Assembly: GCA_035288465.1 (NCBI GenBank)
Contig: DATEAH010000005.1
Coordinates: forward strand, 131,636-195,635
Source: Patescibacteria group bacterium
GTDB taxonomy: Bacteria; Patescibacteriota; UBA1384; DATEAH01
Length of the DNA stretch: 64,000 nucleotides
Direction: 5' to 3'
This document shows, one piece after another, positions 1,112-63,061 of this stretch (the stretch's first letter is position 1; every line of letters begins with the position of its first letter). Both the position numbers and the translations under genes were made by a program. The notes beneath the pieces were generated by a model. It was not told the origin of the DNA. It saw only the letters and a list, made by a program, of their open reading frames with translations, and searched no databases.

Positions 1112-2026
1112 TTATTTATCATCAGGATTTTGGTTTTGATCTGGCTTTTTAACTGTCAAGTCCACAATCGTACCTTCGTGGAGCTCACCTTCGATTGGTT
1201 TTTCGGGGGTTTCGGGGGTTTCGGGGATATTTAAAACAGGTTCATTTTTATTTTCTGGAATTTTCGGAATTTGAAAATCAGGCGGGGCTGTTTTTGGAAT
1301 ATTTTCGGAAATCGGTTTTGATTCAGGTTCGATTGGGGCAGATTTGGGGGATAAATTTTCTGATTTTTCAGCACCTAAATTGGCAATTCCGCCGGGACGG
1401 CGCAAATCTTTATGATTAAAAACGCCGACAGCCCTCTCACCCAAACCCTCTGCAGTATCAATTGTTTTAAGTGCCACATTTCCAGATGGAGAAGAAATTA
1501 ATCTTTTATATTCAGAGGTTAATTTTTGGGTAAATTCGCGCGGGTGGGGAATATTGGTGAAAATAAAATTACGGGCAGTACCGGCGGTTTGAATTTCGAC
1601 ACAACCGAAATCAAGCATGGTTCCAAAAAAACCGGTCACCTTGGCCGAAACATCTTCAACGTGCAAAATATCTAATTCGTCAATGGTGCGATTAAAGAGA
1701 CCATTTTGATTAATATCAACGATTCGTTTATTGGTTAAAATGACGATGTCAAAATACAAATTGACAAAACCGAGTAAAAAGGCGGCGGAGATAAACAATA
1801 AATACATTGACGAAAATACAACCACAAAATTAATTATTGAACCTACAAAAAATTGCGGATAAAAACGAATGGAAATCATCAACAAAGCAAAGGGCACGAT
1901 GAGCATCGCGAAAATGATGATAAAAATTATTAAAAACATAAACCAATGTTTTCTGGTGAAAATTAAAACTTCTTCGTCCACGTCAGCATTAGGAAAAATT
2001 TTACGTAACCGATCTTGATCTTCCAT
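1112..2026 (-). CDS. membrane protein with YdbS/YdbT-like bacterial PH (bPH_2) domain and Pro/Glu/Thr-rich C-terminal tail
   Basis: two N-terminal TM helices followed by ...VILTNKRIVDINQNGLFNRTIDELDI... pattern typical of bPH_2; C-terminal PETPETPEKP repeats. Confidence 0.5.
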   Translation of the reverse strand: MEDQDRLRKIFPNADVDEEVLIFTRKHWFMFLIIFIIIFAMLIVPFALLMISIRFYPQFFVGSIINFVVVFSSMYLLFISAAFLLGFVNLYFDIVILTNKRIVDINQNGLFNRTIDELDILHVEDVSAKVTGFFGTMLDFGCVEIQTAGTARNFIFTNIPHPREFTQKLTSEYKRLISSPSGNVALKTIDTAEGLGERAVGVFNHKDLRRPGGIANLGAEKSENLSPKSAPIEPESKPISENIPKTAPPDFQIPKIPENKNEPVLNIPETPETPEKPIEGELHEGTIVDLTVKKPDQNQNPDDK

Positions 2027-2275
2027 TTAGCCACCTCTAAAAATTTGGGGGATAAATTCTTCGATCGACGGAAAACTGACGCTCCCCCATTTTAAACTCA
2101 ACATAATCGCTAATGAGAAAAAGATAATAATTCCGGTAACAACAATATAAGTGATCATCACTATCTTGGTCATATCACCACGAAAACCATATTTCCATAA
2201 ATGATATAAACCTAAGCCGGAAATAATAATAAAACCTAATAAAAATGCCAAATAAGCTAATAATAAAATAATCAT
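2027..2275 (-). CDS. small integral membrane protein, unknown function
   Basis: 82 aa, two hydrophobic helices, abuts upstream gene. Confidence 0.35.
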   Translation of the reverse strand: MIILLLAYLAFLLGFIIISGLGLYHLWKYGFRGDMTKIVMITYIVVTGIIIFFSLAIMLSLKWGSVSFPSIEEFIPQIFRGG

Positions 2276-2360
2276 AAGTTTGCCTTTGACTGTATCATAT
2301 CACAAAAAAGCTCAAAAATTAATGGCTAAATTAAAAAAAGAGCAAGTTTCTAAATTTTCC

Positions 2361-3360
2361 CTAAGTAGGAAACCTGCTCTGAAGGCTTGACAATTTATCG
2401 CCAAAAGCTTTGATGATATTGTCGCAAGTTAAAGCTTGAATTTGCTCCGGACTTAAACCTAAATCCTCGGGCAAAAAGCGTTCGACAAAATCTCGATAAA
2501 GATAAAGGGAAGGGATGCCAGACGGCGGATCTTGAGAAAATAGTTTTTCGCCAATGGCGTGAGGAGCATGGTCAGTTTCAACCCAATCGATTAAACCTGC
2601 TTGAAGGCATCTCCTAAGTCCTTCTACAACCGGCCAAACTCGCAAGGGAGGATTTACTTTGTAAATCAAACCATTGGCCTCTTTTTTCATAAATTCATTA
2701 GCCCACATTAAATAATGAGGAGTGACACCACAGGTAATTTTGATTTTGCCCCGAGCGTTATTAATCACATCAACTGATTCAGGGCAAGAAACATGACAAA
2801 TATGCAGGGTACCAGCAAAACCCGTCTCAATCGCGAATTTAATTTGGTCTTGAATAGATTCAATTTCAGCTTCTTTAGGTCTCGACCAAGAATGTGAAAT
2901 GGGGTTGGCGCGATTCCAAAGTTCGGGTTTCATTAAGTCTTCTTTCTCGCAATGCGCGGCTAAGACTCCCTTATACCCCAATTTGGTCAAAGTCTGATAA
3001 ACCTGATACTGTTCAGTGTGAGTGGTAACTGCTAATGGACCAACTGATCTGCCGGCAAACATTTTTAAACCTACGATTCGATGGCTAAAATGTCTTTGTC
3101 CATAACATTCAATAGCTTCTTTTATTTGTTCAGGATCCGCGGTGACTCCCATGTATAAAAAGTATCTTTGATGTTGATCGTTTGGGACAAGTTCCAAAAT
3201 ATCAATAACGTCAGGTTCGGAAATAATTGGTCTCTTTTTATTCGGCATATCAAATACCACATCAACACCCTGTTGGGTGGCTAATTCCAGACCATGCGCA
3301 ATCGTTTCTTTATGGGCTTCTTCTCTATCCCTTAAATGCTCGTGTGGATCGATTCTCATC
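2361..3360 (-). CDS. dihydroorotase-like cyclic amidohydrolase
   Basis: DPHEHLRD metal-binding motif near N-term, DHAPH motif near C-term; start moved to ATG at 3360 (MRIDPHEHL) which has an AGGAGG SD ~10 nt upstream, rather than ORF-track start 3407. Confidence 0.6.
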
Positions 3361-3444
3361 TGGTTTGTGCCTCCTGTGTGTTGAGTTGTTAATGTCCAGC
3401 TGTGCAATTATTATACTTTAAAAAAATCTTTTACTCAAGCAAAA

Positions 3445-3969
3445 TTAAGATTTATTTTTTAAACTATAAAAACAGCCGCAGTATTTTTGGCAATATAAAC
3501 CCAAATCATGAGCTTTTTGGTGACCTTGGCGAAATTGGCTAACAAAATCTCGATCAATAAATTCTAAATGATATTTTTGAGCTAATTCCCCACCGATTTG
3601 GCGAACTTTGTCTAAATTCTGATAAGGACTAACCAATAAAGTGGTGGTGAAATATTTATAGTTTTTCGCGGCCGCAATCTGGGCAGTTTTCTCTAAACGT
3701 AATTTATAGCACGCAAAACATCTTTCGGGTTTTTCGAGATTTTCGTTCGCCACAAGATGCTCTTCGGCTTCATATTTTGCCACCATGATTGGCAAATTAA
3801 TAATTTTGGCCAATTGCCTAACGGCTTTGAGTCTTTTTTGAAATTCTTTTTTGGGCTGAATATTGGGATTATAATAGAAACCTGTAACTTCAAAATCTTC
3901 AGCCCTTAATTTTTCCACCACCGAAATTGCGCAAGGCCCGCAACAAATATGAAGCAAAATTTTTTTCAT
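3445..3969 (-). CDS. queH: epoxyqueuosine reductase QueH (DUF208)
   Basis: 174 aa; LLHICCGPC N-terminal cysteine motif and conserved C-terminal Cys pattern of QueH. Confidence 0.75.
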   Translation of the reverse strand: MKKILLHICCGPCAISVVEKLRAEDFEVTGFYYNPNIQPKKEFQKRLKAVRQLAKIINLPIMVAKYEAEEHLVANENLEKPERCFACYKLRLEKTAQIAAAKNYKYFTTTLLVSPYQNLDKVRQIGGELAQKYHLEFIDRDFVSQFRQGHQKAHDLGLYCQKYCGCFYSLKNKS

Positions 3970-3970
3970 T

Positions 3971-5044
3971 TTATTTGAACAATTTTTTCTGACGACGGCT
4001 AATTTTTTCTTTTTGAGCTTTTTTGCTAACTTCTTGAGGACATTTAAAACCTAAATATTCAAAGGCTTTGCTAGTCGCCATACGGCCCTTGGGAGTTCGC
4101 TTTAAAAAGCCTAAACGCATTAAATATGGTTCATAGACTTCTTCAATGTTGGCAATATCTTCAGAAGAGGCGGCAGCTAATGTTTCCAAACCTACCGGTC
4201 CGCCTGAAAATTTTTTAATTAATATTTCTAATAATTTTCGATCAGCTTTATCCAAACCAATACTATCAATTTGGAGCATTTTTAAGGCTTTAAGACAAAT
4301 TTCTGGAGTGATTTTGCCTTGGTGCCTAACCTGGGCATAATCTCGGACACGGCGTAAAATTCGGTTGGCGATTCTAGGGGTCCTGCGGGCACTTTTGGCA
4401 ATTAATATGATTGAAGTATTATCAATTGGAATCCTTAAAATTTTAGCGGCGCGCTTTAAGATCCTTTTGACATCTTTGATTTTATAATAATCTAGCTTAA
4501 AAATTGCGCCAAACCGGTCGCGCAAAGGCGAAGAAATCCCGCCGATTTTAGTGGTGGCGCCAATGACGGTAAACTTGGGCAGTTCTAACCGCAAGGTTTT
4601 AGCAGATGGTCCTTTTCCTATTATTATATCTAAGGCATAATCTTCCATCGCCGGGTAAAGCAATTCTTCAATCAAACGACCAAGTCGATGGATTTCATCA
4701 ATAAACAAAATGTCAAAATCTGACAAACTGGTTAATATCGAAGCTAAATCTCCGGGCCGATCCAGAGTGGGACCCGAAGTAATTTTAATATTGGCAGACA
4801 TTTCATGCGCCATAATTTGCGCCATACTGGTTTTGCCAATTCCGGCTGGACCATATAAAAGAATATGCTCTAAAGGCTCTTTTCTTTTTCTAGCCGCCTC
4901 GAGCATAATTTTTAAATTTTCTTTAATATTGTCCTGTCCGGCAAATTGCGCTAAAGTGCTAGGTCTCAAAGATGAATCGGCCGGGATTTCATCGGGTTTT
5001 AATTTACCACTTACTAAACGTTTTTTTTCTTTTTTGATTGCCAT
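3971..5044 (-). CDS. ruvB: Holliday junction branch migration ATPase RuvB
   Basis: LYGPAGIGKTS Walker A, RuvB-like N-terminus LRPSTLAQFAGQD, AAA+ and winged-helix C-term. Confidence 0.9.
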   Translation of the reverse strand: MAIKKEKKRLVSGKLKPDEIPADSSLRPSTLAQFAGQDNIKENLKIMLEAARKRKEPLEHILLYGPAGIGKTSMAQIMAHEMSANIKITSGPTLDRPGDLASILTSLSDFDILFIDEIHRLGRLIEELLYPAMEDYALDIIIGKGPSAKTLRLELPKFTVIGATTKIGGISSPLRDRFGAIFKLDYYKIKDVKRILKRAAKILRIPIDNTSIILIAKSARRTPRIANRILRRVRDYAQVRHQGKITPEICLKALKMLQIDSIGLDKADRKLLEILIKKFSGGPVGLETLAAASSEDIANIEEVYEPYLMRLGFLKRTPKGRMATSKAFEYLGFKCPQEVSKKAQKEKISRRQKKLFK

Positions 5045-5200
5045 TTTAGGCTCACTTTCTCCCCTCCTTAAGGTAATGATATACTTAACGTTTACGGCCT
5101 CAGACCCCCTTTCTTTTTCGTAAAGAAAGTGTCTGACGCAAAGAAAACTAATTTGAAATCCCTATTCTGACAGAACCATGGAAAAGTTATTTTATATAAT

Positions 5201-17144: not shown

Positions 17145-17173
17145 TTGACTTTTTGATTTTGATGTGTTATAAT
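17145..17173 (+). promoter_or_regulatory. perfect sigma70-consensus promoter TTGACT-N17-TATAAT
   Basis: TTGACT 17145-17150, 17-nt spacer, TATAAT 17168-17173; followed by a ~100-nt leader with a UUCG-tetraloop hairpin (AACCC-TTCG-GGGTT, 17226-17239) and a CCGCC...GGCGG hairpin. Confidence 0.55.
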
Positions 17174-17278
17174 ATAGGCATTCGAGGCTAACTTTAGCTT
17201 CGTTCGTGATATTGTTCGTTAACAAAACCCTTCGGGGTTAAACTTTCCGCCTCTGCGGCGGAGAAGGAGGTGTTAACC

Positions 17279-18241
17279 GTGAGGTTGGCACTTGCAATCG
17301 TCGTGTTGCTCGTTGTTGCTGCGTCAGTCACATTGGCGCAGTCGGCCCCAACCTGCGTGGTCGTCGTTGACCCGCAGGCCGAGTACGGCTACGGCGGTTA
17401 TGGGGGGTACGACGGGAGCTACTATTACAGCTCCCAACTCTCCCAGATCGCCAAGCAGGAACTGGAGGCTGCGCTCAGCGAGCGCGGCTGGCTGGTTCTG
17501 CTCAATGCCTCGGACGTCGGTCCGACCCAGGAGGAGTTGCTTCTTGAGAACTCCGAATGGGGCATCAACGGCAGAAATCGCCAACCTATCGGTGATTTCA
17601 CCGGAGCAACAGAGACATTTCTTGTCTCCGCCTTCACATTTGGCGGCCGCGATTTTGAACTCGCGGCTTGGCTGGATGATGCCTATCCTTCGGTCCGACT
17701 CTCGGACCTACGGGTGAAGGCGATTATCCGGCGTTCGTCAACGCGGACCCGGGAGGTTCCCGCGGTCTATGAGGGCTACGGCTCGAAGCGGATTGTCAAA
17801 GACGTCCGCTTGGGTATCCAGTCCTCGCGGAATTTCTGGGGTGGTCTTGTTCAATTGGCAAGCCAGGCTCTCGAAGCTGGTTTAACTGATTGGCAAGACG
17901 CCGGACGAGCCGCCGCACGAGGCGCCATCGAAAATGCCCTTCGGGGTATTGAAGCGCCACGCCAACTGGCTCCCACAACCAGTTCGTCAGCTTTCACAAG
18001 CGCTGACGCGCAAACGTCAACCCCCCGGTACATTTTCCTAATGCTTTATGGTCAGGAAGTTTCCGAGGGCGACCGCTTCGGCATTTGGCGAGACAATCGT
18101 CAGATCGCCGAGGTTGAGGTCGAGTTTGTCCGCTCAGACAACCGAGCATCCTGTCGAGTACTTCGCAGCTCGGTTCCTGATCTTGGCCGCCCCGGCGACT
18201 CCGCCCGCAGTCTCACCCCGACCATCCCCATAGAGCAGTAG
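17279..18241 (+). CDS. secreted protein of unknown function, GC-rich (~60% GC) in an AT-rich backbone
   Basis: GAAGGAGG SD, GTG start at 17279 (ORF-track start 17270 sits directly on the SD); signal peptide RLALAIVVLLVVAASVTLAQS; Gly/Tyr low-complexity YGYGGYGGYDGSYYY; no recognised domain. Confidence 0.55.
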   Translation: MRLALAIVVLLVVAASVTLAQSAPTCVVVVDPQAEYGYGGYGGYDGSYYYSSQLSQIAKQELEAALSERGWLVLLNASDVGPTQEELLLENSEWGINGRNRQPIGDFTGATETFLVSAFTFGGRDFELAAWLDDAYPSVRLSDLRVKAIIRRSSTRTREVPAVYEGYGSKRIVKDVRLGIQSSRNFWGGLVQLASQALEAGLTDWQDAGRAAARGAIENALRGIEAPRQLAPTTSSSAFTSADAQTSTPRYIFLMLYGQEVSEGDRFGIWRDNRQIAEVEVEFVRSDNRASCRVLRSSVPDLGRPGDSARSLTPTIPIEQ

Positions 18242-18274
18242 CTCCACCAATCTCTCCCTAAGGGAGGTGAAACA

Positions 18275-18472
18275 ATGCACTTCGAAACTAGAGTAGTCGT
18301 TGTAGAAACTGAAGGTAGGGGCGTCAGGGCAGCAACCGAACAACTCGCCGTGGATATTGCACTGCTTGGATCCGAAGGCTGGGAGGTCAAAGGACTCAGC
18401 AGCATGCTCCCCGACGAGTACCACGGGTACCATATCTGCGTCCTCCAACGCCCCACCTCTACCAAGTCCTAA
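18275..18472 (+). CDS. small DUF4177-like protein
   Basis: 65 aa; strong SD GGGAGGTG then ATG; pattern ETRVVVVETEG.G...LGSEGWEV...LQRP resembles the DUF4177 family; GC-rich. Confidence 0.45.
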   Translation: MHFETRVVVVETEGRGVRAATEQLAVDIALLGSEGWEVKGLSSMLPDEYHGYHICVLQRPTSTKS

Positions 18473-18568
18473 CGTCTCGTCGCAAGTGAGTACATCGTGT
18501 GCATCCTCGCCCGACCCATCGAGGCCGGCTAACATTAGCGGTCTCGCTACCTGGAGTTGGATCTGATG

Positions 18569-18622
18569 ATCATAACCTCAAGGTTATGATTTAGCGGCAA
18601 ACCGCTATCTGCCTCCCGGCAG
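18569..18622 (+). terminator. cluster of three hairpins downstream of the GC-rich two-gene cassette
   Basis: ATCATAACC-TCAA-GGTTATGAT (9-bp stem), AGCGG-CAAA-CCGCT, CTGCC-TCCC-GGCAG; no strong T-run, so terminator function is inferred. Confidence 0.35.
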
Positions 18623-18836
18623 AAAATCAGACCCAGCTCCTTTTCGTTTTCAAAAAATAAATTGAGAATATAGAGCGAGGCGTCTCCTAAGAAAAGTGTC
18701 TCGAGCCAAACCCGAGGGAATTTTTTAAATAAGTTGAAAGTTTATGGTTTGGCGAAAGTCAAGTGATGATCGAGAAAATTTTATCAAACAAGAAAAAATT
18801 ATCGGAGCGTCTTTTCGTGGAGTATGTTGAGCGAAA

Positions 18837-37426: not shown

Positions 37427-37479
37427 GCCCCGTGAGGCTAAAAACACTTTTTTGCCCTGCGGGGATTTTTTTATAGGCT
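37427..37479 (+). terminator. terminator-like hairpin + T-run after the three-gene operon
   Basis: CCCCG...CGGGG stem followed by ATTTTTTTAT. Confidence 0.4.
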
Positions 37480-37533
37480 CGGTGCCCATAATCCCGCCTT
37501 CCAAGCGTTATGACAGGTAACTTTGCGGGGTGA
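37475..37533 (+). repeat. island-associated repeat copy 1 (TGCCCATAATCCCGC ... GCGGGGTGAT hairpin element)
   Basis: ~75% identical over ~90 bp to the copy at 40515-40612; shares the ATAATCCCGC...GCGGGAT hairpin with 45499-45546. Confidence 0.5.
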
Positions 37534-37673
37534 TTCAACTCGATGGCGATAATCCCGATTTTACCTCCTTGACCCCGCACAATATTTAATATTCGCGAAG
37601 ATCTACGTTCTCGACTCAAGCGTCATATATGCGGGGTCTACGCCCCGCTCCGTGCGTAGCTCTGGTGTGGGGC

Positions 37674-37702
37674 TTGACAAACCCATTTTATTTTGCTATA
37701 AT
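37674..37702 (+). promoter_or_regulatory. perfect sigma70-consensus promoter TTGACA-N17-TATAAT
   Basis: TTGACA 37674-37679, 17-nt spacer, TATAAT 37697-37702; preceded by GCGGGG-TCTAC-GCCCCGC hairpin; drives the L,D-transpeptidase gene. Confidence 0.5.
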
Positions 37703-40514: not shown

Positions 40515-40612
40515 GTATCATTTTTTGCCCACACCTGTTAGGTTCTTTTTTTATGGGTTCGATGCCCATAATCCCGCATTCCTCGCGTCACGATAGGAAA
40601 ATCTGCGGGATA
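40515..40612 (+). repeat. island-associated repeat copy 2 (T-run + GGGTTCGATGCCCATAATCCCGC ... GCGGGAT)
   Basis: aligns with 37440-37535. Confidence 0.5.
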
Positions 40613-40622
40613 ACTTGCGAGA

Positions 40623-45008: not shown

Positions 45009-45429
45009 TTTCTAAAAATAGCCCCTCTAAACCGGTTTTAGGTTCTAATTTGCGAATCATTTTAAGGTTTGATTTTAATAGTACAATTTCTCCGGTAGTT
45101 TCAATGGTGCCGGAAATTAAATGTCCACCAAGGGTTTTTTTATTTTCATCGCCCAAAACTGCGTGTAAATGGAATTTATAATCTGATTTTTGTTCTGAAA
45201 TCATACCAGATAGTTGTAAAAGCTCATGGGCTTTTTTAAAATTTTGGGGTAAATATTCAGCTTTGGTTTTAAAAAAACCGAGCTCAAAATTTTTTAATTG
45301 TCCTAAAGCGGAAATAATAATGGCGGTTTGGATATGGTGATTTTGGCAAATTTGCTCTAAACTTTTGAACAAGTCTTTGTCTGGAAATAATCTGGTAATA
45401 ATGAGATTGTTATTTTCTTGAGATTGCAT
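45001..45429 (-). CDS. PPC/DUF296 domain protein
   Basis: YKFHLHAVLGDENKKTLGGHLISG conserved-His motif of DUF296. Confidence 0.5.
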   Translation of the reverse strand: MQSQENNNLIITRLFPDKDLFKSLEQICQNHHIQTAIIISALGQLKNFELGFFKTKAEYLPQNFKKAHELLQLSGMISEQKSDYKFHLHAVLGDENKKTLGGHLISGTIETTGEIVLLKSNLKMIRKLEPKTGLEGLFLEND

Positions 45430-45498
45430 TTTCGCCTCCTTGGATATTATATTGGAATTTTAAATCTGATTCAAATTATTCGATGTCGTCATTAAGGG

Positions 45499-45546
45499 AT
45501 ATAATCCCGCAAAGTTTTCTATTCTGACGCAGGGAAAGCGGGATTG
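45499..45546 (+). repeat. island-associated repeat copy 3 (ATAATCCCGC-loop-GCGGGAT hairpin)
   Basis: same stem sequences as copies 1 and 2; followed by CCCC-TTCG-GGGG tetraloop hairpin at ~45612-45624. Confidence 0.45.
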
Positions 45547-45705
45547 TGAGTATCAAACCCATAAGAACCTCTCGCTTCGCTCGAGAACCTTGTTGCGTGC
45601 TTGCGCTACCCCTTCGGGGCGGCGGCTTCGCCTGGCAAGCGATGCAATAAAAAAATCCCGTCAAGGTAAAAAGTAAAAACCCTAACGGGTGACAAATTGG
45701 TTTAA

Positions 45706-46629
45706 TTATTTAGCTAAAGTGCGTGAGGGACATTTCGGTTTTTTGGGTTTCGGCTGATATGTAGTTGGATCATCATATGGAGTACGCTTTCTATTATGGA
45801 TCAGCCATTCTCGCAATTCTCGTTGATATTGTATTTCAGCATATTCATAATTTAACAGTTCCTGGGCGCAATTTTTAATTTGTTCGCAATTTTCAATTTC
45901 CAAACCATTCTCGAGCCGCAAGACTCCAGCCAAATCATATCGTGACCGGTCTGTCCAATCAGCTTGTATCTCTTGGAAGGCTTGTTCTGGATTCGCAATC
46001 AACTCTTGCAATTCGGAAAATCTTTTGACTTCATATTCTTTCTCTATCTCACTAGCTTTAAATGTGCCGATTGTGTAACTTGTGACGCCAGCATCAAGAA
46101 GTTCTTGCCTTCTGATAATCCATTTCAGTAAAATTGTACCAGCAGTTCGATAGTAATAAACCATTTCCCGATGATTTGGAGATGATTGGTGAAGATGTTT
46201 TCTCAAATCCGAATCTTCAAAATAACCGAAAACCTGACCTTTTTGGGGCATAATCTCTGATAATTCTCGATGCTTGGTCAGCAATTCATCTTCCGGGACA
46301 TCAGGTGAGGCTAGCACTAAATCTACGATTTCCTGCAAAAGGCTTCTCGCCTGATCCGCAATGACTCGGTCAGTGGTGAGCTGCTTGACGGCCATTTGCG
46401 ACACCTCCGGTGGTTGGGTTTTCAGTCGATCTGTATCAAAACCCGAAAGAAGATGCACGGCTCGTTCTGCTTCTCGTTGTTCTGCCTCGTTAACGCAATA
46501 TGTTCCACCAGAATTATTGGGATGTTTTATCTGCGCTCGAATTCGTTCAAATTTTGCATGAATCGGCGTCCAAACCCGGTTTGGCCGTCGTTTTCGCAAA
46601 CCTCTCACCTCCGTAGGCATTAATAACAT
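45706..46629 (-). CDS. hypothetical protein (307 aa), GC-richer than backbone, no recognisable domain
   Basis: long ORF; a GGAGGTGA SD sits before an internal TTG, so the start is uncertain; divergent from the structured GC-rich RNA region. Confidence 0.45.
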   Translation of the reverse strand: MLLMPTEVRGLRKRRPNRVWTPIHAKFERIRAQIKHPNNSGGTYCVNEAEQREAERAVHLLSGFDTDRLKTQPPEVSQMAVKQLTTDRVIADQARSLLQEIVDLVLASPDVPEDELLTKHRELSEIMPQKGQVFGYFEDSDLRKHLHQSSPNHREMVYYYRTAGTILLKWIIRRQELLDAGVTSYTIGTFKASEIEKEYEVKRFSELQELIANPEQAFQEIQADWTDRSRYDLAGVLRLENGLEIENCEQIKNCAQELLNYEYAEIQYQRELREWLIHNRKRTPYDDPTTYQPKPKKPKCPSRTLAK

Positions 46630-46673
46630 TATAATTTAAAATTTTCAAAATGCAAATAAAAATTAGAAAAAAT

Positions 46674-46701
46674 TTGACTTTTGGAAATATCATTATAAAA
46701 T
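46674..46701 (+). promoter_or_regulatory. sigma70-like promoter TTGACT-N16-TAAAAT
   Basis: points into the GC-rich non-coding region. Confidence 0.4.
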
Positions 46702-46704
46702 TAT

Positions 46705-47527
46705 ATTTAAGGAGAAAATTACCAGCAACACAGTGCTGGTTGATATACGCACAAACAGATGGTCAAGCCTTGTTGTCAAGAAGTGAGAGGGCTTGGCAGT
46801 TCTGTTTGATCCTGTCACAGAAGGAGGTGATAGATAGACCACACCAAGAGGATGCCGTTAGACAGGACTCGGTCAGGGATCTCAGGGAACTCGGATCAAG
46901 AATCGGATGACGGGATCTACTGGGTCAGAAAGTGCTTCGGATCACGTGGACAGGTGGATCGGTCACAGATCGTGGTCGTGTTGTACCCGGGGGAGGATGC
47001 TCTAAGGTCGACAACGCGGTCAATGAGGATGTCGTAGTCCAAGTGGAAATGCCCATGCGGGCTTGTGGTCCAAGTAGTCTCGCATCCTCCCCCAGTCGCT
47101 CTTCCAGCTTCACCCTGATACACCCGACGACCAAACGTCGTTCCTGCCGGCTAAACCCGTAAATTCGTGCGGGTTTATGCCCCGGCCATCCTTCTCCAGT
47201 TGTGGAGAAAAACACCATGAAGAAGCTCGCCCTCTGCTGACGATCTACACCGTGGTCAACCCCAAACCTTCTCACCCCCGCATCGTTGCGGGACGCCGAC
47301 CCTACTAAGGGAAGGATCACCAGTCTAACTGGAATCGTCGCACCTTCCCTTAGGCCCTCATCGCCTACACGTCTTGGCGCCAGCCAAGAGCACGACCAGA
47401 GGTCGGAGAGGTTCGTCCTCACCCCTCGCCCCGGCTATTGGAGTACTACAAAGAGCATCCTTAGCTGGAGCACCCCCGAGAGTACGAGAGCTTAGCGCGC
47501 TTTCATGCCCCCGGGGTTTCTTTTTTA
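46705..47527 (+). ncRNA. candidate large (~820 nt) highly structured GC-rich ncRNA, class unknown
   Basis: no dominant reading frame (short overlapping ORFs on both strands); many nested inverted repeats, e.g. GGGGGAGGATGC...GCATCCTCCCCC, AAGGGAAGG...CCTTCCCTT enclosing CCAGT-CTAA-CTGG, ACCAGCA...TGCTGGT; bounded by a promoter and a T-run. Confidence 0.4.
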
Positions 47528-47546
47528 TTTAGAACAAAAAAATAAA

Positions 47547-48353
47547 TTATGAGACCATAATATCCCTTTTAGAAAACCAAGCAGCACCAATAACAATTAC
47601 AACCGCGGAAATGCCGATAAAAACTAAATACCCCCAGTGATCAATTTGATTATGGATTAGAGCTTTGGAAGGATTAAAATAATAAAAGAATGAGACATAT
47701 TTTAGATCAGCAAGTTGCTCTTTAATTGAAGAAACAATATTTAAAACGTACATGACCACCAACAAGGCCCCGGAAATAAAATAGACTTTGCCTTTATCAG
47801 AAAAAATTGCCGACAAGAACATCCCAATGCTATAAATGACCAAACCAAATAAAAATGCCAAAAGCGCCATGGTGGCAAAATTTTCAAAAGTATAAGAAAT
47901 TTTAAAAATCTCAATAATGGGAATGGCGATAAAGACCGAGAAAATGACAAAAACCACTAAGCTGGCTAGACCGGCCAAATATCGGCTAATAAATAATTTT
48001 AACCTTGAAATTGGCTGAGCTAACAAAATTTCAATCGTGCCTTTTTCAATTTCGCCAGCAAAAGCCGTGCCGGCAAAACCAACTGACATCAAAACTACTA
48101 ATAATGGCCACATAAACGAAAATTGTTCGGTCGATAAAAAACCTTCAATAGTAGTGAAGTTGGCAATATCGAAATTAAAAGCCTTTAAAAAAGACTCGGG
48201 ATAACTTTTAAACAATTGCTCCATGGCCGCTGATTGGTCTTTAAATGATGGGAACAAAGAAATATACATTAATAACAAGCCAATATTGACTAAAATATAC
48301 ACTAAAAAGACTGATTGTCGATCTTTTAAAATCCGCCAAAACACTGCTTTCAT
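47547..48353 (-). CDS. ABC-2 type transporter permease
   Basis: 268 aa, 6 TM helices, adjacent to the ABC ATPase. Confidence 0.6.
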   Translation of the reverse strand: MKAVFWRILKDRQSVFLVYILVNIGLLLMYISLFPSFKDQSAAMEQLFKSYPESFLKAFNFDIANFTTIEGFLSTEQFSFMWPLLVVLMSVGFAGTAFAGEIEKGTIEILLAQPISRLKLFISRYLAGLASLVVFVIFSVFIAIPIIEIFKISYTFENFATMALLAFLFGLVIYSIGMFLSAIFSDKGKVYFISGALLVVMYVLNIVSSIKEQLADLKYVSFFYYFNPSKALIHNQIDHWGYLVFIGISAVVIVIGAAWFSKRDIMVS

Positions 48354-49234
48354 TATTTTTCTCCGCCACGATAAAATTCTAAAAAGACTTCTTCTAAAGT
48401 CGCATGGGTGATTTCTAAATCTTTAATTTGGTTTTTAGCTAATTTCTGCAACACTATATTAATATCGCCTTTAGAATTTAAAACTAAGCCATCTGGCAAA
48501 ACTCGCTCAATAGCAACCTCTTTGGAAATAAAATCATTTTTATTGAATGTATTTTCAAAAATAACCGTAATAATGTGCGTTTTTTTGGCATGAAGTTTTT
48601 CAATATCTTCAAGCGCGATTAATTTGCCAGCTTTAATAATGCCAACTCGACGGCAAAGCCTTTCGACCTCAGCTAAATTATGAGATGACATAAAAATAGT
48701 GGTGCCTGATTTCTCTAAATCTTCTAAAATTTCATAAATGGTATTTTGTAATAACGGATCAAGCCCGACTGTGGGTTCATCCATAATGAGAATTTGCGGA
48801 TTAGACATTAAAGCTAAAATTAAACCTAATTTTTGTTTATTGCCGGTTGATAAATGCTTAAATTTTAATTTGGGGTTAAAGTCTAATTTTTTACACAACT
48901 CGCGGACATTTTGAGACTTACCACGGATCGATTCCACAAAATCAATATGCTCCTGACCAGTCCAGCCATCATAAAGTTGAACGTTGCCGGGTAAATAACC
49001 GACTTTGTCCATTATTTTCACGCTTTGTTTTTGAGCGTCTTGGCTTAAAATTTTAATTTCGCCTGAGGTGGGTTTGATAAAATTCATTAGGCAACGGATA
49101 GTGGTGGTTTTACCAGCACCATTGGGTCCTAAAAAGCCAAAAATTTCGCCTTTTTCGACTTCAAAAGAAATGCCATCAACGGCTTTAGTTTTGCCAAAAT
49201 GTTTTTTGAGATTTGAAACTTCAATCGCTTTCAT
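48353..49234 (-). CDS. ABC transporter ATP-binding protein
   Basis: GPNGAGKTTT Walker A, LSTGNKQKLGL signature, ILIMDEPTVGLD Walker B. Confidence 0.85.
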   Translation of the reverse strand: MKAIEVSNLKKHFGKTKAVDGISFEVEKGEIFGFLGPNGAGKTTTIRCLMNFIKPTSGEIKILSQDAQKQSVKIMDKVGYLPGNVQLYDGWTGQEHIDFVESIRGKSQNVRELCKKLDFNPKLKFKHLSTGNKQKLGLILALMSNPQILIMDEPTVGLDPLLQNTIYEILEDLEKSGTTIFMSSHNLAEVERLCRRVGIIKAGKLIALEDIEKLHAKKTHIITVIFENTFNKNDFISKEVAIERVLPDGLVLNSKGDINIVLQKLAKNQIKDLEITHATLEEVFLEFYRGGEK

Positions 49235-49246
49235 TATTTTACAATA

Positions 49247-49825
49247 TTATCTAGTTAGCCTAACTGGAATTTGAATTAAACCGATTTCACTGCTGTCAGC
49301 TTCAGAAACATCAAACAACTCCAGAATTGCATCCATTGGTGAACGACTTAAAGTTAAAGTGATCGTTTTGCGGTAAGGGGCGTTTTCAAAACTATCGCCG
49401 GTGACAGAAACAGCACCTTGCTTCAAAATTGGGCCGCGGCAATCTCTGAGTCGGTAATTAAATTCGCCTTCAAAAACCGTCGCCGTACCAGAAAAAGTCA
49501 AACTTAACCCAGAATTAATTGAATAATCCGCAGGGGATGTAACTTTAATGGTTGTACCCTTGGTCGGATTTTGAAGACAATGAACACTTTTTACGGTCTG
49601 ACTAGTGCCTTGTGAAGTTGCTGAAGAGTTAGTTGATGTGCTTGTGTCAGAAGTGCTTGAGGTTGATTCTTCAGCATTTTTTTTCAAGGTATCAATTTCT
49701 CGGCGCAAATTTTCAATTTCCGTGCTGGCTTTTTTGCTTTGAGCGCGATAATAATAAACCCCATAGCTTGTGGCAACCAACAATAATACTAAAAGGATCG
49801 AACCAACGATTTTTAATATTTTCAT
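49247..49825 (-). CDS. membrane-anchored Ser/Thr-rich secreted protein, unknown function
   Basis: N-terminal TM, coiled-coil, STSDTSTSTNSSATSQGTSQ linker, beta-rich C-term. Confidence 0.45.
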   Translation of the reverse strand: MKILKIVGSILLVLLLVATSYGVYYYRAQSKKASTEIENLRREIDTLKKNAEESTSSTSDTSTSTNSSATSQGTSQTVKSVHCLQNPTKGTTIKVTSPADYSINSGLSLTFSGTATVFEGEFNYRLRDCRGPILKQGAVSVTGDSFENAPYRKTITLTLSRSPMDAILELFDVSEADSSEIGLIQIPVRLTR

Positions 49826-49887
49826 ATTTCCCTCATTAATATTATATCAATTTTTATAAAATCTAAAAGCGGGAAGAATCTTAAATT

Positions 49888-49912
49888 GGCGGAAAAAAAG
49901 AGCCGAGGCTCG
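49888..49912 (-). terminator. rho-independent terminator after the 7-gene island operon
   Basis: minus strand CGAGCC-TC-GGCTC then TTTTTTT. Confidence 0.45.
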
Positions 49913-49951
49913 AAAACTGGTGTTGTTGTCGAACAACGGCTGTTAATTTTT

Positions 49952-50134
49952 TTAAAATTGTAATTTTTTAATTGCTAAGGCAAGTCCCGAAATAATAATG
50001 GCAATTGCCAGAAGATACAACCCTAAACAAATCCAAATGTGTAGATTTTGCCCCAGAGAAATAGCGGCTCCAATCATTGAGAAACATCCACAAACAAACA
50101 TAAAAATGCCTAAGCCAAACCAGGTTATCTTCAT
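49952..50134 (-). CDS. island operon gene 7: small 2-TM membrane protein (60 aa)
   Basis: ATG overlaps upstream TGA (ATGA); preceded by GGAGGGATAAGAG. Confidence 0.5.
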   Translation of the reverse strand: MKITWFGLGIFMFVCGCFSMIGAAISLGQNLHIWICLGLYLLAIAIIISGLALAIKKLQF

Positions 50135-50412
50135 CTCTTATCCCTCCAGATTGATACTTTTTTAACTGTTTTGGCTTTTAGGATTTTATTTTCTGTGTCA
50201 AATTCTAAAATTTCAAATGTCTGTGCATCTACTTCAAACACAGTTACTTTCTGACCCGTGAATTGATTGGTTGCAAATGCTGTAGCGAGAATCATTTGTA
50301 AATTTAGTCCTTGTACTTTTTCAATACGACATTTCTTAGCATCATCTATATAAACGTCCACATAATCCCCAGCATACACCGTGAGAAGAGATATTTTTTC
50401 TGCCGTTGCCAT
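50131..50412 (-). CDS. island operon gene 6: hypothetical protein (93 aa)
   Basis: preceded by CCAGGAGGCGATGAGAG-ATG cassette. Confidence 0.55.
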   Translation of the reverse strand: MATAEKISLLTVYAGDYVDVYIDDAKKCRIEKVQGLNLQMILATAFATNQFTGQKVTVFEVDAQTFEILEFDTENKILKAKTVKKVSIWRDKR

Positions 50413-50450
50413 CTCTCATCGCCTCCTGGAGTTTGTGGTTCGGCTTGATT

Positions 50451-50891
50451 CTAATCTTGCAACCGTGTTACGACTTGATTGCAAAGAACTTCAAACCGTT
50501 TGATTGCATCATGCGATAACCTTAAACTTGAAAGAGAAATTTTCCCATTATTATCGATGGCTTGGATAATCTCTTGGCAAGTAGGCACAACCACTTCTTG
50601 CAATTTATCAATTGCCTCGAGGTCATAATTGCCTTCCAAAGGAATTGAGAGATTGGCAGCTTGTTTGGAACAAATATCTCTGACTTCTGCCGAAAGCTCC
50701 TCAAATTTTGCTGGAAATGTGGTTAAAGGACGGCGATCATCTTCGTTGAGTTGCTCAAGAAAGTATTTAAGCTCTTCGGGCCCATGCATATGCATCTTCC
50801 AGACGCATTCAAGAATTTCCATAACTTCATTGGCTCTCACGAGATAAGCAGCAAGCATAATCCGAGTGACGACCGCTGGCATCTGTTCCAT
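50451..50891 (-). CDS. island operon gene 5: hypothetical protein (146 aa)
   Basis: preceded by TGGAGACGATGAGAG-ATG; the upstream gene's TGA lies inside the cassette. Confidence 0.55.
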   Translation of the reverse strand: MEQMPAVVTRIMLAAYLVRANEVMEILECVWKMHMHGPEELKYFLEQLNEDDRRPLTTFPAKFEELSAEVRDICSKQAANLSIPLEGNYDLEAIDKLQEVVVPTCQEIIQAIDNNGKISLSSLRLSHDAIKRFEVLCNQVVTRLQD

Positions 50892-50894
50892 CTC

Positions 50895-51356
50895 TCATCG
50901 TCTCCATAAGTCTTCGATTTGATCTTGAACTTCTTGAGCCAAAGCCTTACCTTTATCGGTTAAAACCACCAAATCTTGATCATTTATTTCAACAATTCCA
51001 GCAACTACAGCTTCGTCAAGAATCGTGAGAGGATGATTGGCATCAAGTAAAATCGCAATTCCATAATCTGCTGATTTTACGATGACTGCTTGAAGTAATT
51101 CCAAATGTTTCTCACGAATAAGACAACTCATAACTTCATTAGAAACACCTAGATGATACGAGATTACATTTTCAATACCTTTCATAAACCCTGTAATGGT
51201 TTCTGGGCAGAGAATTTGCAAACGTGCTCTTTGGTAATCTTCTTCAGGCATACGACGGGTCCACATATCAATATAACAACACCCGCTTGCCTCTATTTTG
51301 TGTAAATCGTCAACTAGATCACCCAAAGTTTTTCTGGCTTGATTGTTTTCGCTCAT
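50895..51356 (-). CDS. island operon gene 4: hypothetical protein (153 aa)
   Basis: preceded by CCAGGAGGCGATGAGAG-ATG. Confidence 0.55.
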   Translation of the reverse strand: MSENNQARKTLGDLVDDLHKIEASGCCYIDMWTRRMPEEDYQRARLQILCPETITGFMKGIENVISYHLGVSNEVMSCLIREKHLELLQAVIVKSADYGIAILLDANHPLTILDEAVVAGIVEINDQDLVVLTDKGKALAQEVQDQIEDLWRR

Positions 51357-51405
51357 CTCTCATCGCCTCCTGGGTAGGGGTTGTAAAAACCTGGACGGGC
51401 GAATA

Positions 51406-52167
51406 TTACTGTTGATTTTGAAGATTCATAATCTCACGTGCGAGCATGTTTAAGTAAGTGCAAGCATAAGTTCTCATTAAAAATGCTTGAGGAACGCGAT
51501 ACCCGCCATGAATCTCTGCCCGCAAAACATCAAAAATACCATGCCAAGAATCATCTGATCCGGAAAAATCGCCCTTGGCGAAAGGCTCAACTGTTTGGCG
51601 TTTACAATTGATCTCACTGCGTTCCAATTCTACATCTCTTTCGAGAACAAAATTAGAGGTATCAGTGTAGGGCGGGAATTTAATTAAGAGCAGGGCGCCT
51701 GAACCTGGACCAAGACTGATATAATCAGAATCAACCCAATTACATTTTCGATCATGACCATTATCAGCGTCCAAAAATTCACCAAGCCATTTCATTCTTT
51801 CTTTAATGGGAATATATTTTAATATTCGGGAAATTGGCGAATAAATTTCCTCGCCGACTCTTTCTCTGAGTTTTGTCGGTTCAGTGGGAGAATTTATCCA
51901 TCTGCCTATGTCTTCAATAAACCCATCAAGACATTCTCCAAAAGCATTTCTTTCGATTTGGCAATTCTGCTCATGAGATATTTTTCCGGAAGAAATCGCT
52001 TCGATAATCGGTGGCCAAATCAGGATCGGCGCAATTTCAATTTGATAGCCAACCTTTTCCTCGCAAGGCGGTTTTGCCCTTCCATAATGGCATCGGCATT
52101 GATGACGAAAAGGAGTCATTGCCATGGGGAAGTTAAAACGATGCAGATAGGGCATAGGGTCTGCCAT
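51406..52167 (-). CDS. island operon gene 3: hypothetical Cys-rich protein (254 aa)
   Basis: start moved to ATG at 52167 (MADPMPYLHRF) preceded by CGGAGGCAATCGAG; the ORF-track GTG start 52209 has no SD. Confidence 0.5.
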   Translation of the reverse strand: MADPMPYLHRFNFPMAMTPFRHQCRCHYGRAKPPCEEKVGYQIEIAPILIWPPIIEAISSGKISHEQNCQIERNAFGECLDGFIEDIGRWINSPTEPTKLRERVGEEIYSPISRILKYIPIKERMKWLGEFLDADNGHDRKCNWVDSDYISLGPGSGALLLIKFPPYTDTSNFVLERDVELERSEINCKRQTVEPFAKGDFSGSDDSWHGIFDVLRAEIHGGYRVPQAFLMRTYACTYLNMLAREIMNLQNQQ

Positions 52168-62398: not shown

Positions 62399-62504
62399 CG
62401 GCTGATTCCTCCCGGGGGGTCTGATAATGAATCAGTTAATTTATTATCTCAAATAAATTTGAAAAAATCAAGATTATATAGTAAAATAATGATATAAAAT
62501 TTGA

Positions 62505-62781
62505 TCCGGTGTAGCTCAGTGGTAGAGCAGCTCGCTGTATATCGTTGCAGCCCCCAAAGGTAACTTTGAGGTGAAAATCGGGTTAATTGTCGGGAAGCCC
62601 CGCTTAAGTGAGGTAATCCGCAGCCAAGCCCGCCGAAGAGGCGTGGAAGGTTCAGAGACTATACGCCCGATTCCGCACCCGTCAATTTGACGGACGGAAA
62701 TGAGATAGTCCACTCCTAAAGGTAACTTTAGGGTAAAGTGTAACGAGAAGGTCGCTGGTTCGAATCCAGCCACCGGAGCCA
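62505..62781 (+). tRNA. tRNA-Asn (anticodon GTT) interrupted by a ~202-nt intron in the anticodon loop; CCA encoded
   Basis: 5' exon TCCGGTGTAGCTCAGTGGTAGAGCAGCTCGCTGT, 3' exon TAACGAGAAGGTCGCTGGTTCGAATCCAGCCACCGGAGCCA; spliced loop CTGTTAA; closely resembles E. coli tRNA-Asn. Confidence 0.7.
62539..62740 (+). ncRNA. group-I-like intron within tRNA-Asn (between anticodon-loop positions 35/36)
   Basis: 5' exon ends in U pairing with G of an intron GCAG guide-like sequence (U.G); intron ends in G; contains AGAGACTATAC P7-like element; no ORF. Confidence 0.55.
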
Positions 62782-63061
62782 AATCAAAACATCTCAATTT
62801 TATGAGAAATTTTGATTTGTTTTGGCAAGGGCGAGAACCCATGGCGTAAAACATCGTCAAATAAAAAAGTGACATTTTAGCAAAAAGTTTAAAGAATTAA
62901 AACATTTTTGTATCGAGACGGGCTTTAGCCCTTTGAATCGCCTCATCGGCGATCCAGCGAAGAGGTGAATCCCTGCCCCGGAGCCACGAAAAATGACTCA
63001 GCCATAAAATGACTCAGCCACGCTTCGCTGTCTCGTAGCGATAGAAAGGACGCAAATAATC

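Follow-up and report, generated by a model that had tools for sequence, protein, structure and literature searches.

A well-bounded, GC-rich and hairpin-rich non-coding unit beside an orphan gene in a Berkelbacteria-like genome: a candidate lineage-specific RNA

Families of large ornate RNAs are recognised by sequence blocks that are conserved, and helices that covary, in many genomes or phages, and to our knowledge almost nothing is known about regulatory or structural RNAs in the Candidate Phyla Radiation (CPR). GC-rich intergenic regions (IGRs) of AT-rich genomes are enriched for structured RNAs, and the GC-IGR pipeline builds on this enrichment (PMC11109978). Here, we describe a GC-rich unit in a groundwater Patescibacteria metagenome-assembled genome, within a 64,000-nucleotide (nt) stretch of contig DATEAH010000005.1 that we refer to as the window. 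The unit lies between a gene for an orphan protein and an ABC-2 permease gene (coordinates of all features are given in Table 1). Our analyses confirmed that it is GC-rich, non-coding, rich in hairpins, well bounded and matched by no known family. A new class of ornate RNA is not established on present evidence.

The GC content of 46705-47527 is 55-57%, compared with 38% for the genome (38.0% on average in the 64-kb window), with 200-nt windows from 46800 to 47499 ranging between 53.5 and 59%; a composition scan flagged 46721-47575 at 53.6% GC. The edges of this ~820-nt stretch are sharp, and it is bounded by the stop codon of the permease on one side and by the orphan gene on the other, all flanking genes being encoded on the minus strand. 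The 5' half is rich in G (skew of +0.2 to +0.27) and the 3' half in C (-0.14 to -0.28). Only short, overlapping open reading frames (ORFs) are found in it, the longest of 165 amino acids (aa; 46925-47422, minus strand), and the longest stop-free run of 169 codons is borderline when compared to dinucleotide shuffles (117+-28, P=0.05). There is no period-3 signal in the unit (GC by fixed phase 0.56/0.56/0.53), and none of its six-frame translations matched Pfam. A codon model trained on GC-rich genes of the lineage, with control genes left out of training, was run over all six frames in 60-codon windows and scored the unit at -0.085 to +0.03 per codon. This is the level of the null (-0.047+-0.07), whereas true genes reached 0.11-0.20. 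These scores were null in every window and frame, and neither the residual codon periodicity nor the protein similarity of a pseudogene was seen; tblastx and tblastn searches against the island genes of the lineage likewise gave only E-values of at least 0.097, although remote protein similarity may have been missed. A database-wide search with concatenated six-frame translations missed a known self-match and is not counted as evidence. Because the stretch shows no period-3 signal, no Pfam domain and codon scores at the null level, we regard it as non-coding, and thus as a non-coding IGR with a GC content well above the genome mean. This bears out an earlier reading made from the sequence alone (hereafter the sequence-only reading), which had described a GC-rich segment without a dominant ORF at this position.

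The genome represents one Berkelbacteria-like clone, in line with the closest relatives of the neighbouring permease, and the region is chromosomal. The clone was recovered in more than 24 contigs assembled independently (JGI, ENA, Logan, NCBI) that include the GC-rich region and are essentially 100% identical, differing by one mismatch and one gap. The region is therefore not an assembly artefact, and for the same invariance these contigs carry no covariation information. In several independent assemblies of the clone, contigs end or start at about 47543, 47443, 47238, 47060, and 45589, that is, within or at the edges of the unit or in a GC-rich tail. Such breaks could be due to a GC-related drop in coverage or to minor-strain heterogeneity; because no variant without the GC-rich island was present among the clone contigs read, we take them as coverage or GC effects.

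Signals for transcription coincide with both edges of the unit. A 75-nt AT-rich spacer on its left carries two divergent promoter-like sites, one for the orphan gene and one facing the unit exactly at the AT-to-GC transition. At the other end, a hairpin resembling an intrinsic terminator precedes a T-run (47517-47530), and 17 nt separate the end of this run from the permease stop codon, the permease being convergent; on the minus strand the same hairpin (47474-47516) is followed by GUGCUCC and lacks a U-run. Promoter and hairpin with U-run both face the plus strand, and each coincides exactly with a GC boundary; for this reason we assigned the candidate RNA to that strand. Together, promoter and terminator (UUUCUUUUUU, 47474-47526) delimit a putative transcription unit at both edges on the same strand, recognised through consensus matches only; promoter-like sites defined by such matches are only about twice as frequent as expected from shuffles. 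The start at a TTGACT-N16-TAAAAT promoter and the end at a T-run had both been noted in the sequence-only reading and are supported by the consensus match and hairpin energy listed in Table 1. In addition, a weaker terminator-like structure is present on the minus strand, where the hairpin 46740-46721 is followed by AAUUUUCUC (-10.5 kcal/mol, z -3.8).

Several inverted repeats lie within these boundaries. GGGGGAGGATGC at 46989-47000 complements GCATCCTCCCCC at 47082-47093 over 12 nt (100%, 81 nt between the arms), and CTAAGGGAAGG at 47305-47315 complements CCTTCCCTTAG at 47343-47353 over 11 nt, enclosing CCAGT-CTA-ACTGG. An ACCAGCA/TGCTGGT inverted repeat (46721-46740) and a CCCGCA-TCGT-TGCGGG hairpin (47277-47292) add to these. 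All repeats listed in the sequence-only reading are thus present where it had placed them, with two corrections: the 12-nt arms are 81 rather than about 85 nt apart, and the second repeat is an 11-nt stem. Two perfect inverted repeats of at least 11 nt within 120 nt were observed, compared with an expectation of 0.018, and no case with two arose in 2000 dinucleotide shuffles (P<0.0005). Alignment of the unit to its own reverse complement did not exceed shuffles, and one large, diverged inverted duplication was therefore rejected.

The predicted fold of the plus strand has a minimum free energy (MFE) of -307 kcal/mol for the whole unit, with z-scores of -2.6 (60 shuffles), -2.7 (16 shuffles), and -4.4 (20 shuffles). 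At its 5' end, the second of two hairpins contains an inner 10-bp helix (46762-46797). The central domain closed by the 12-bp helix (46989-47093) folds at -47.2 kcal/mol (z -2.9). Hairpins of the string in the C-rich half are located at 47152-47177, 47192-47209, 47277-47292, 47305-47353, 47372-47389, and 47431-47468; the fourth has the 11-bp perfect stem with an inner CCAGU-CUA-ACUGG, and 47300-47358 folds at -21.2 kcal/mol (z -2.8). Local z-scores in the 3' half (47000-47400) ranged from -2.2 to -3.65 on the plus strand versus -1.0 to -1.5 on the minus strand, a modest preference for plus that is confined to this half.

Besides the inverted repeats, short motifs recur in the unit. Nowhere else in the 64 kb are GATC sites as dense as between 46878 and 46971, where six lie in 94 nt amid short degenerate repeats, compared with 0.43 expected; none of 5000 shuffles reached six (P<2e-4). 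The cluster, which the sequence-only reading had not mentioned, could represent sites for methylation or restriction, sites for protein binding, or motifs for RNA pairing. Three of only eight GAGGATG copies in the 64 kb lie in the G-rich half of the unit (46848, 46993, 47025), and three of only six copies of its complement CATCCTY lie in the C-rich half (47083, 47187, 47456); the only tandem repeat is a 9-nt x 2.2 array. Downstream of the Shine-Dalgarno (SD)-like GAAGGAGGTGAT there is just a 27-codon open frame and no canonical start codon at SD distance. As in CsrB and RsmZ, the unit is long and non-coding and contains a short motif many times (24 GGA), and its three GAGGAUG copies resemble the ARGGAUG core of CsrA ligands. 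It differs from these RNAs in that it gave no Rfam match to CsrB, RsmX, RsmY, or RsmZ; moreover, none of the 24 GGA motifs lies in a hairpin loop of the MFE fold, so that the RNA is unlike a CsrB-type sponge, and this candidate was rejected. A mobile element (insertion sequence, miniature inverted-repeat transposable element, or att-flanked island) was discarded as well: we found no flanking direct repeats or target-site duplication around the unit, no terminal inverted repeats or significant self-complementarity of its ends, and no transposase or integrase domain in the orphan protein. An origin of replication (oriC) did not fit either, with no convincing DnaA box by eye (best 6/9) and a cumulative GC skew that falls from 47000 to 52000 without a turning point.

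The divergent orphan gene next to the unit has an ORF of 307 aa. Its likely start is a TTG at 46599 behind GGAGGTGA, giving a protein of 297 aa that matches NCBI record HLC38816.1. The 307-aa protein of the sequence-only reading is therefore probably shorter, but its lack of a recognisable domain stood, as Pfam, NCBIfam, PHROGs, and PADLOC gave nothing above threshold. Only self-matches were retrieved by a word-indexed search of 5.8 billion clusters and a full HMMER scan of 1.84 billion representatives. Likewise, tblastn against phages and plasmids and a search of IMG/VR returned nothing, and the best PDB match, to the RIG-I helical insertion, was not significant (E=0.08). In these family, PDB, and phage/plasmid searches, no similarity to Rep, Par, or integrase proteins was seen. 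A single-sequence AlphaFold model was all-helical with a predicted local distance difference test (pLDDT) score of 45, too poor for a fold search. The protein has a basic N-terminus (isoelectric point (pI) 12) and a basic C-terminal tail (pI 10.2), both rich in arginine and lysine, and an acidic core (pI 4.8); the basic termini would be compatible with nucleic-acid binding. The GC contents of its three codon positions (GC1/2/3 of 0.56/0.37/0.35) are a coding signature, with a GC3 equal to that of the native permease (0.35). Its codon usage is thus native, while the adjoining unit stays at 57% GC. The Rfam scan also gave a terminator-type alignment at the terminator of the gene.

We then compared the unit with described RNA families. 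At the gathering score, Rfam 15 cmscan of the whole window detected only four tRNAs and one group I intron, none of them in the unit, and when 45300-47700 was scanned with permissive filters at E<=10, the only matches were five to unrelated small RNAs, all at chance level. The covariance models of GOLLD (RF01998), ROOL (RF03087), OLE (RF01071), HEARO, and raiA did not match even at E<=10. Nor did Rfam or ARAGORN detect RNase P RNA, tmRNA, 6S, signal recognition particle (SRP) RNA, group I or II introns, or rRNA fragments in the unit, consistent with the absence of tmRNA, RNase P, 6S, and group II signatures noted before. A divergent RNase P RNA of Patescibacteria with insertions, found at 145.6 bits in a related locus (L004), served as positive control. 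As far as these models reach, the unit belongs to no described RNA family.

The search for homologues covered 37 related loci collected via the permease, 29 from GTDB species representatives and eight more from Logan, ENA, and JGI (permeases 67-77% identical). Using nhmmer, we found no sequence similar to the unit in these loci (33, then L057-L060). A blastn search of phage and plasmid records and a k-mer scan of IMG/VR gave no match, and six degenerate 24-nt probes from the spurious 165-aa ORF found only the clone itself in JGI metagenome contigs and nothing in IMG/VR. The public collections were probed by exact or degenerate patterns only, so that distant relatives may be missed. With no homologue at hand, covariation, the defining criterion of new RNA classes, is not applicable.

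Compared with large ornate non-coding RNAs (ncRNAs), the unit is similar in length (~800 nt, in the range of GOLLD), non-coding, helix-rich, and higher in GC than its host. In contrast to them it is without a detectable relative, has perfect 11-12-bp Watson-Crick stems and a strand-symmetric folding signal, and lies in no tRNA or phage neighbourhood. The suggestion in the sequence-only reading of an ornate RNA on the scale of OLE, GOLLD, or ROOL was consequently not upheld, as that comparison draws on size and no family matched. The unit resembles the GC-IGRs left 'unnamed' or 'low-ranking' by the pipeline, which are also long IGRs that greatly exceed their AT-rich genome in GC content, contain neither an ORF nor a known RNA, and have homologues too few, or none, for covariation. 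The unit is, however, longer than most of them, and has clear promoter and terminator edges and a strong excess of perfect hairpins. Given that it has no homologues, it operationally belongs with these groups (PMC11109978).

GC-rich insertions are a recurrent feature of this lineage. Three GC-rich islands lie within ~75 kb of the contig, namely the unit, 17158-18661, and one to the left of the window (L055 10978-12714). In island 17158-18661, a 323-aa ORF that has both a signal peptide and a GYGGYGGY stretch (GC1/2/3 0.64/0.49/0.64) is accompanied by a 65-aa ORF, neither with a Pfam domain. For coding sequence, the folding of its plus strand is unusually strong (z -4 to -5.8). The L055 island encodes a predicted 447-aa lipoprotein (...FSGC lipobox, GC3 0.68) and a 64-aa ORF; both islands share the same cassette layout with unrelated proteins. 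Because of their GC3 of 0.64-0.68, these coding islands look recently acquired. The unit shares with them the sharp jump in GC, a near-consensus upstream promoter, a downstream terminator, and an SD-like AAGGAGGTG motif, and one island of the lineage occupies the same permease-downstream site. Unlike the unit, which shows no coding signal, the islands carry long ORFs (GC3 0.53-0.71, GC2 0.42-0.49), and no similarity of the unit to other GC-rich islands was detected at the DNA or protein level.

The site downstream of the permease differs among relatives. In a relative with a 75% identical permease (L038), it is occupied by a 3-kb GC-rich coding island (1950-5100) with PspA_IM30, a 268-aa ORF, and a 481-aa ORF with a Gly/Tyr-rich tail. 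A more distant Berkelbacteria locus (L005) has ~850 nt of GC-rich sequence there (3078-4009) that consists of two promoter/terminator-delimited units running in the permease direction. A stop-free frame runs through the whole of the shorter one, unit A (~240 nt), which folds at z -5.2 on the permease strand, and the longer unit B has no long ORF; neither is similar in sequence to the unit described here. In L001-L003, tRNA genes are located at the site. None of the 12 closest relatives (permease identity of 60-77%) contains the GC-rich unit, and both it and the orphan gene are missing from all relatives examined. These different GC-rich insertions make the site a hot spot.

We favour, though with less than even confidence, the reading of the unit as a lineage-specific, independently transcribed non-coding RNA of ~815 nt on the plus strand which, as we infer, is functionally paired with the orphan protein. 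Its transcription would begin at a sigma-70-type promoter and stop at an intrinsic terminator, both belonging to the unit, and the RNA would fold as a chain of stable hairpins with a few long-range helices. It might form an RNA-protein pair with the orphan protein, and the GAGGAUG and CAUCCUY motifs (three each), the five GGAUC, and the CGGUCA-type motifs may serve as helix-forming or protein-binding sites. Its high GC would then be retained by selection for RNA folding against the AT bias of the genome. In favour of such an RNA speak the transcription signals at both GC boundaries, the folding of individual domains (z -2.8 to -2.9), the local z-scores that favour plus at 47000-47400, the excess of perfect hairpins, the AT-rich third codon positions of the orphan gene beside a unit that stays at 57% GC, and the delimited GC-rich, putatively non-coding units at the same position in L005. 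If the unit is a functional RNA, it would add a large ncRNA with a dedicated orphan protein partner to the CPR, and the 2 kb kept for such a module in reduced genomes would imply a real function. That RNA and protein constitute a previously unseen module, a large structured RNA class from a single lineage in a reduced, AT-rich CPR bacterium, seems doubtful; under this reading, the analogous units of L005 would suggest that RNAs of this kind form a rapidly evolving family.

Several observations weigh against an RNA. Perfect 11-12-bp stems are unusual for old, ornate RNAs. The z-score of the whole region is only about -2.6 and equal for both strands (minus strand MFE -315.5, z -2.3 to -2.7), high-probability pairs are as numerous on the minus (155) as on the plus strand (145), and G-U pairs are rare on both (13/145 on plus, 12/155 on minus), the helices being nearly all Watson-Crick. 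As the helices are symmetric between strands, the folding signal is one of palindromic DNA as much as of RNA and picks no strand. Furthermore, 200-nt windows of the coding island 17158-18661 surpass the unit in folding, so that a negative z does not separate structured RNA from GC-rich DNA here. With no homologue, neither conservation nor compensatory changes back the proposed helices. Both this genome and the 75% relative carry several GC-rich islands of horizontally acquired appearance, and high GC therefore need not mean selection for structure. Finally, of the 4714 GC-rich IGRs that the GC-IGR survey covered in 50 genomes, only a small minority of 55 became high-ranking RNA candidates, and 607 were low-ranking and 427 unnamed (PMC11109978).

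The main alternative, which we consider unlikely, though with a real share of the probability, is an inert remnant of horizontally acquired GC-rich DNA whose frame was destroyed, with promoter and terminator as leftovers or as chance matches in AT-rich DNA. The two other islands within ~75 kb are coding cassettes with just such a near-consensus promoter, a strong SD and a terminator, the 75% relative has its coding island at exactly this site, and the 12 closest relatives are without the region. The SD-like sequence is placed as in the coding islands, at ~110 nt from the putative start, with no ORF after it, and the modest excess of promoter-like sites over shuffles suits chance matches. A decayed gene would, however, be expected neither to yield the excess of perfect hairpins nor the motif repeats, and neither a remaining coding signal, whatever the frame or window, nor a trace of a protein domain was found. 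Moreover, an age sufficient to erase the coding signal should have brought drift toward 38% GC, yet the unit is still at 57%, and the degenerate probes uncovered no donor-like sequence in JGI metagenome contigs. That the unit encodes a protein after all, through small ORFs, a non-standard code, or frameshifts, is very improbable: gene callers do predict the 165-aa ORF on the minus strand and an 86-aa ORF on the plus strand, the longest stop-free run is borderline, and the SD-like sequence is strong, but codon scores, periodicity, and Pfam searches were all negative, the protein clusters of both called ORFs hold this clone only, and the most open plus-strand frame mixes TAG, TGA, and TAA stops, so that no single reassignment opens it.

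A functional RNA could also be encoded on the opposite strand, as a long structured 3' untranslated region (UTR) of the ABC-transporter operon or as read-through, ending at 46740-46721. Every flanking gene lies on that strand, the permease is without a U-run after any hairpin on its own strand, the minus-strand terminator-like hairpin sits just before the promoter of the orphan gene, and the GC-rich units of L005 share the permease direction. The minus strand also folds as well as the plus strand and has the lower ensemble diversity (z -2.0 versus -0.8), a difference that we judged not discriminating. Yet the better pair of promoter and terminator faces the plus strand, local z-scores at 47000-47400 are weaker on the minus strand, and an 820-nt 3' UTR would be unusual for a reduced genome, which makes this arrangement improbable. 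Still less probable is an element that acts at the DNA level, an array of binding sites or palindromes such as a replication, partition, or methylation-control remnant of an integrated element, with the orphan protein as DNA-binding partner. The dense GATC cluster, the TCGGAT(C/G)A and CGGTCA..GATC repeats, the strand-symmetric perfect Watson-Crick palindromes, and the basic termini of the protein would fit such an array, but the repeats are short, degenerate, and irregularly spaced, the unit has no AT-rich unwinding element, direct repeats or target-site duplication at its flanks are lacking, and the protein is unlike Rep, Par, and integrase families. The locus offers a clean, well-bounded target for metatranscriptome read mapping; its main value at present is cautionary, in that high GC, hairpins, and negative z-scores do not tell structured RNA from foreign DNA here.

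Table 1 Features of the GC-rich unit and its surroundings (window positions, unless a locus is named)
Feature	Position	Strand	Remarks
GC-rich non-coding unit, candidate ~815-nt RNA	46708-47530	+	strand from promoter and terminator only
Promoter-like TTGACT-16-TAAAAT	46674-46701	+	10/12 consensus matches; implied start near 46708
5' hairpins ACCAGCA/UGCUGGU, then CAAACAGA...UCUGUUUG	46721-46740; 46752-46808	+	pair probabilities 0.94-0.97
SD-like GAAGGAGGTGAT	46818-46829	+	11-nt anti-16S-like; ~110 nt from putative start
Cluster of short repeated motifs	46866-46975		six GATC, five GGATC, TCGGAT(C/G)A three times, CGGTCA-type
Domain closed by perfect 12-bp helix GGGGGAGGAUGC/GCAUCCUCCCCC	46989-47093	+	branched 81-nt insert; p=0.98
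Local hairpin string, C-rich 3' half	47152-47468	+	pair probabilities 0.88-0.99
Intrinsic-terminator-like hairpin, then UUUCUUUUUUAUUU	47474-47530	+	hairpin 47474-47516, -20.4 kcal/mol
Orphan protein gene	45706-46629	-	ORF of 307 aa from ATG 46629
Promoter-like TTTGCA-17-TATAAT of orphan gene	46628-46656	-	back-to-back with the plus-strand promoter-like site
Intrinsic terminator of orphan gene	45657-45689	-	11-bp stem, then AUUUUUUUAUU; -17.1 kcal/mol, z -5.0
ABC-2 permease	47547-48353	-	Pfam PF12679
GC-rich island, 56% GC	17158-18661		TTGACT-17-TATAAT promoter, strong AAGGAGGTG SD, terminator-like end
GC-rich island, same contig left of window	L055 10978-12714		TTGACA-17-TATAAT promoter, strong terminator
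Two-hairpin element, copy A	45496-45577	+	between terminator of orphan gene and promoter of PCC gene; putative strand

Two further elements were observed in the window. Three copies of an ~80-nt element with two hairpins lie within 8 kb, at 45496-45577 (plus strand), 40538-40619 (minus strand), and 37458-37540 (minus strand). Its copies are 80% identical and consist of the blocks ATCCCGCA..GACGC..GCGGGAT, then ATGGGCAyCGArCCyAT, followed by an A-run. Copy A is followed by a GC-rich hairpin segment to about 45645, copy B stands directly after the stop codon of an RsmH-like gene, and copy C is located in ~250 nt of GC-rich sequence that contains no gene and has a promoter-like site of its own (37440-37700). 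The three copies were used to build a covariance model, which scored 86-94 bits on each of them and had no match in 33 related loci; Rfam contained no match to the element.

The second is a tRNA-Asn(GUU) gene at ~62506-62790 (plus strand), whose anticodon loop is split by the group I intron (RF00028, 81 bits, 62451-62732), and for which ARAGORN made no call. Genes for tRNA-Asn and tRNA-Asp of Patescibacteria have reportedly been missed owing to group I introns (PMC13011429), and the split gene in this window matches that description of intron-bearing tRNAs.

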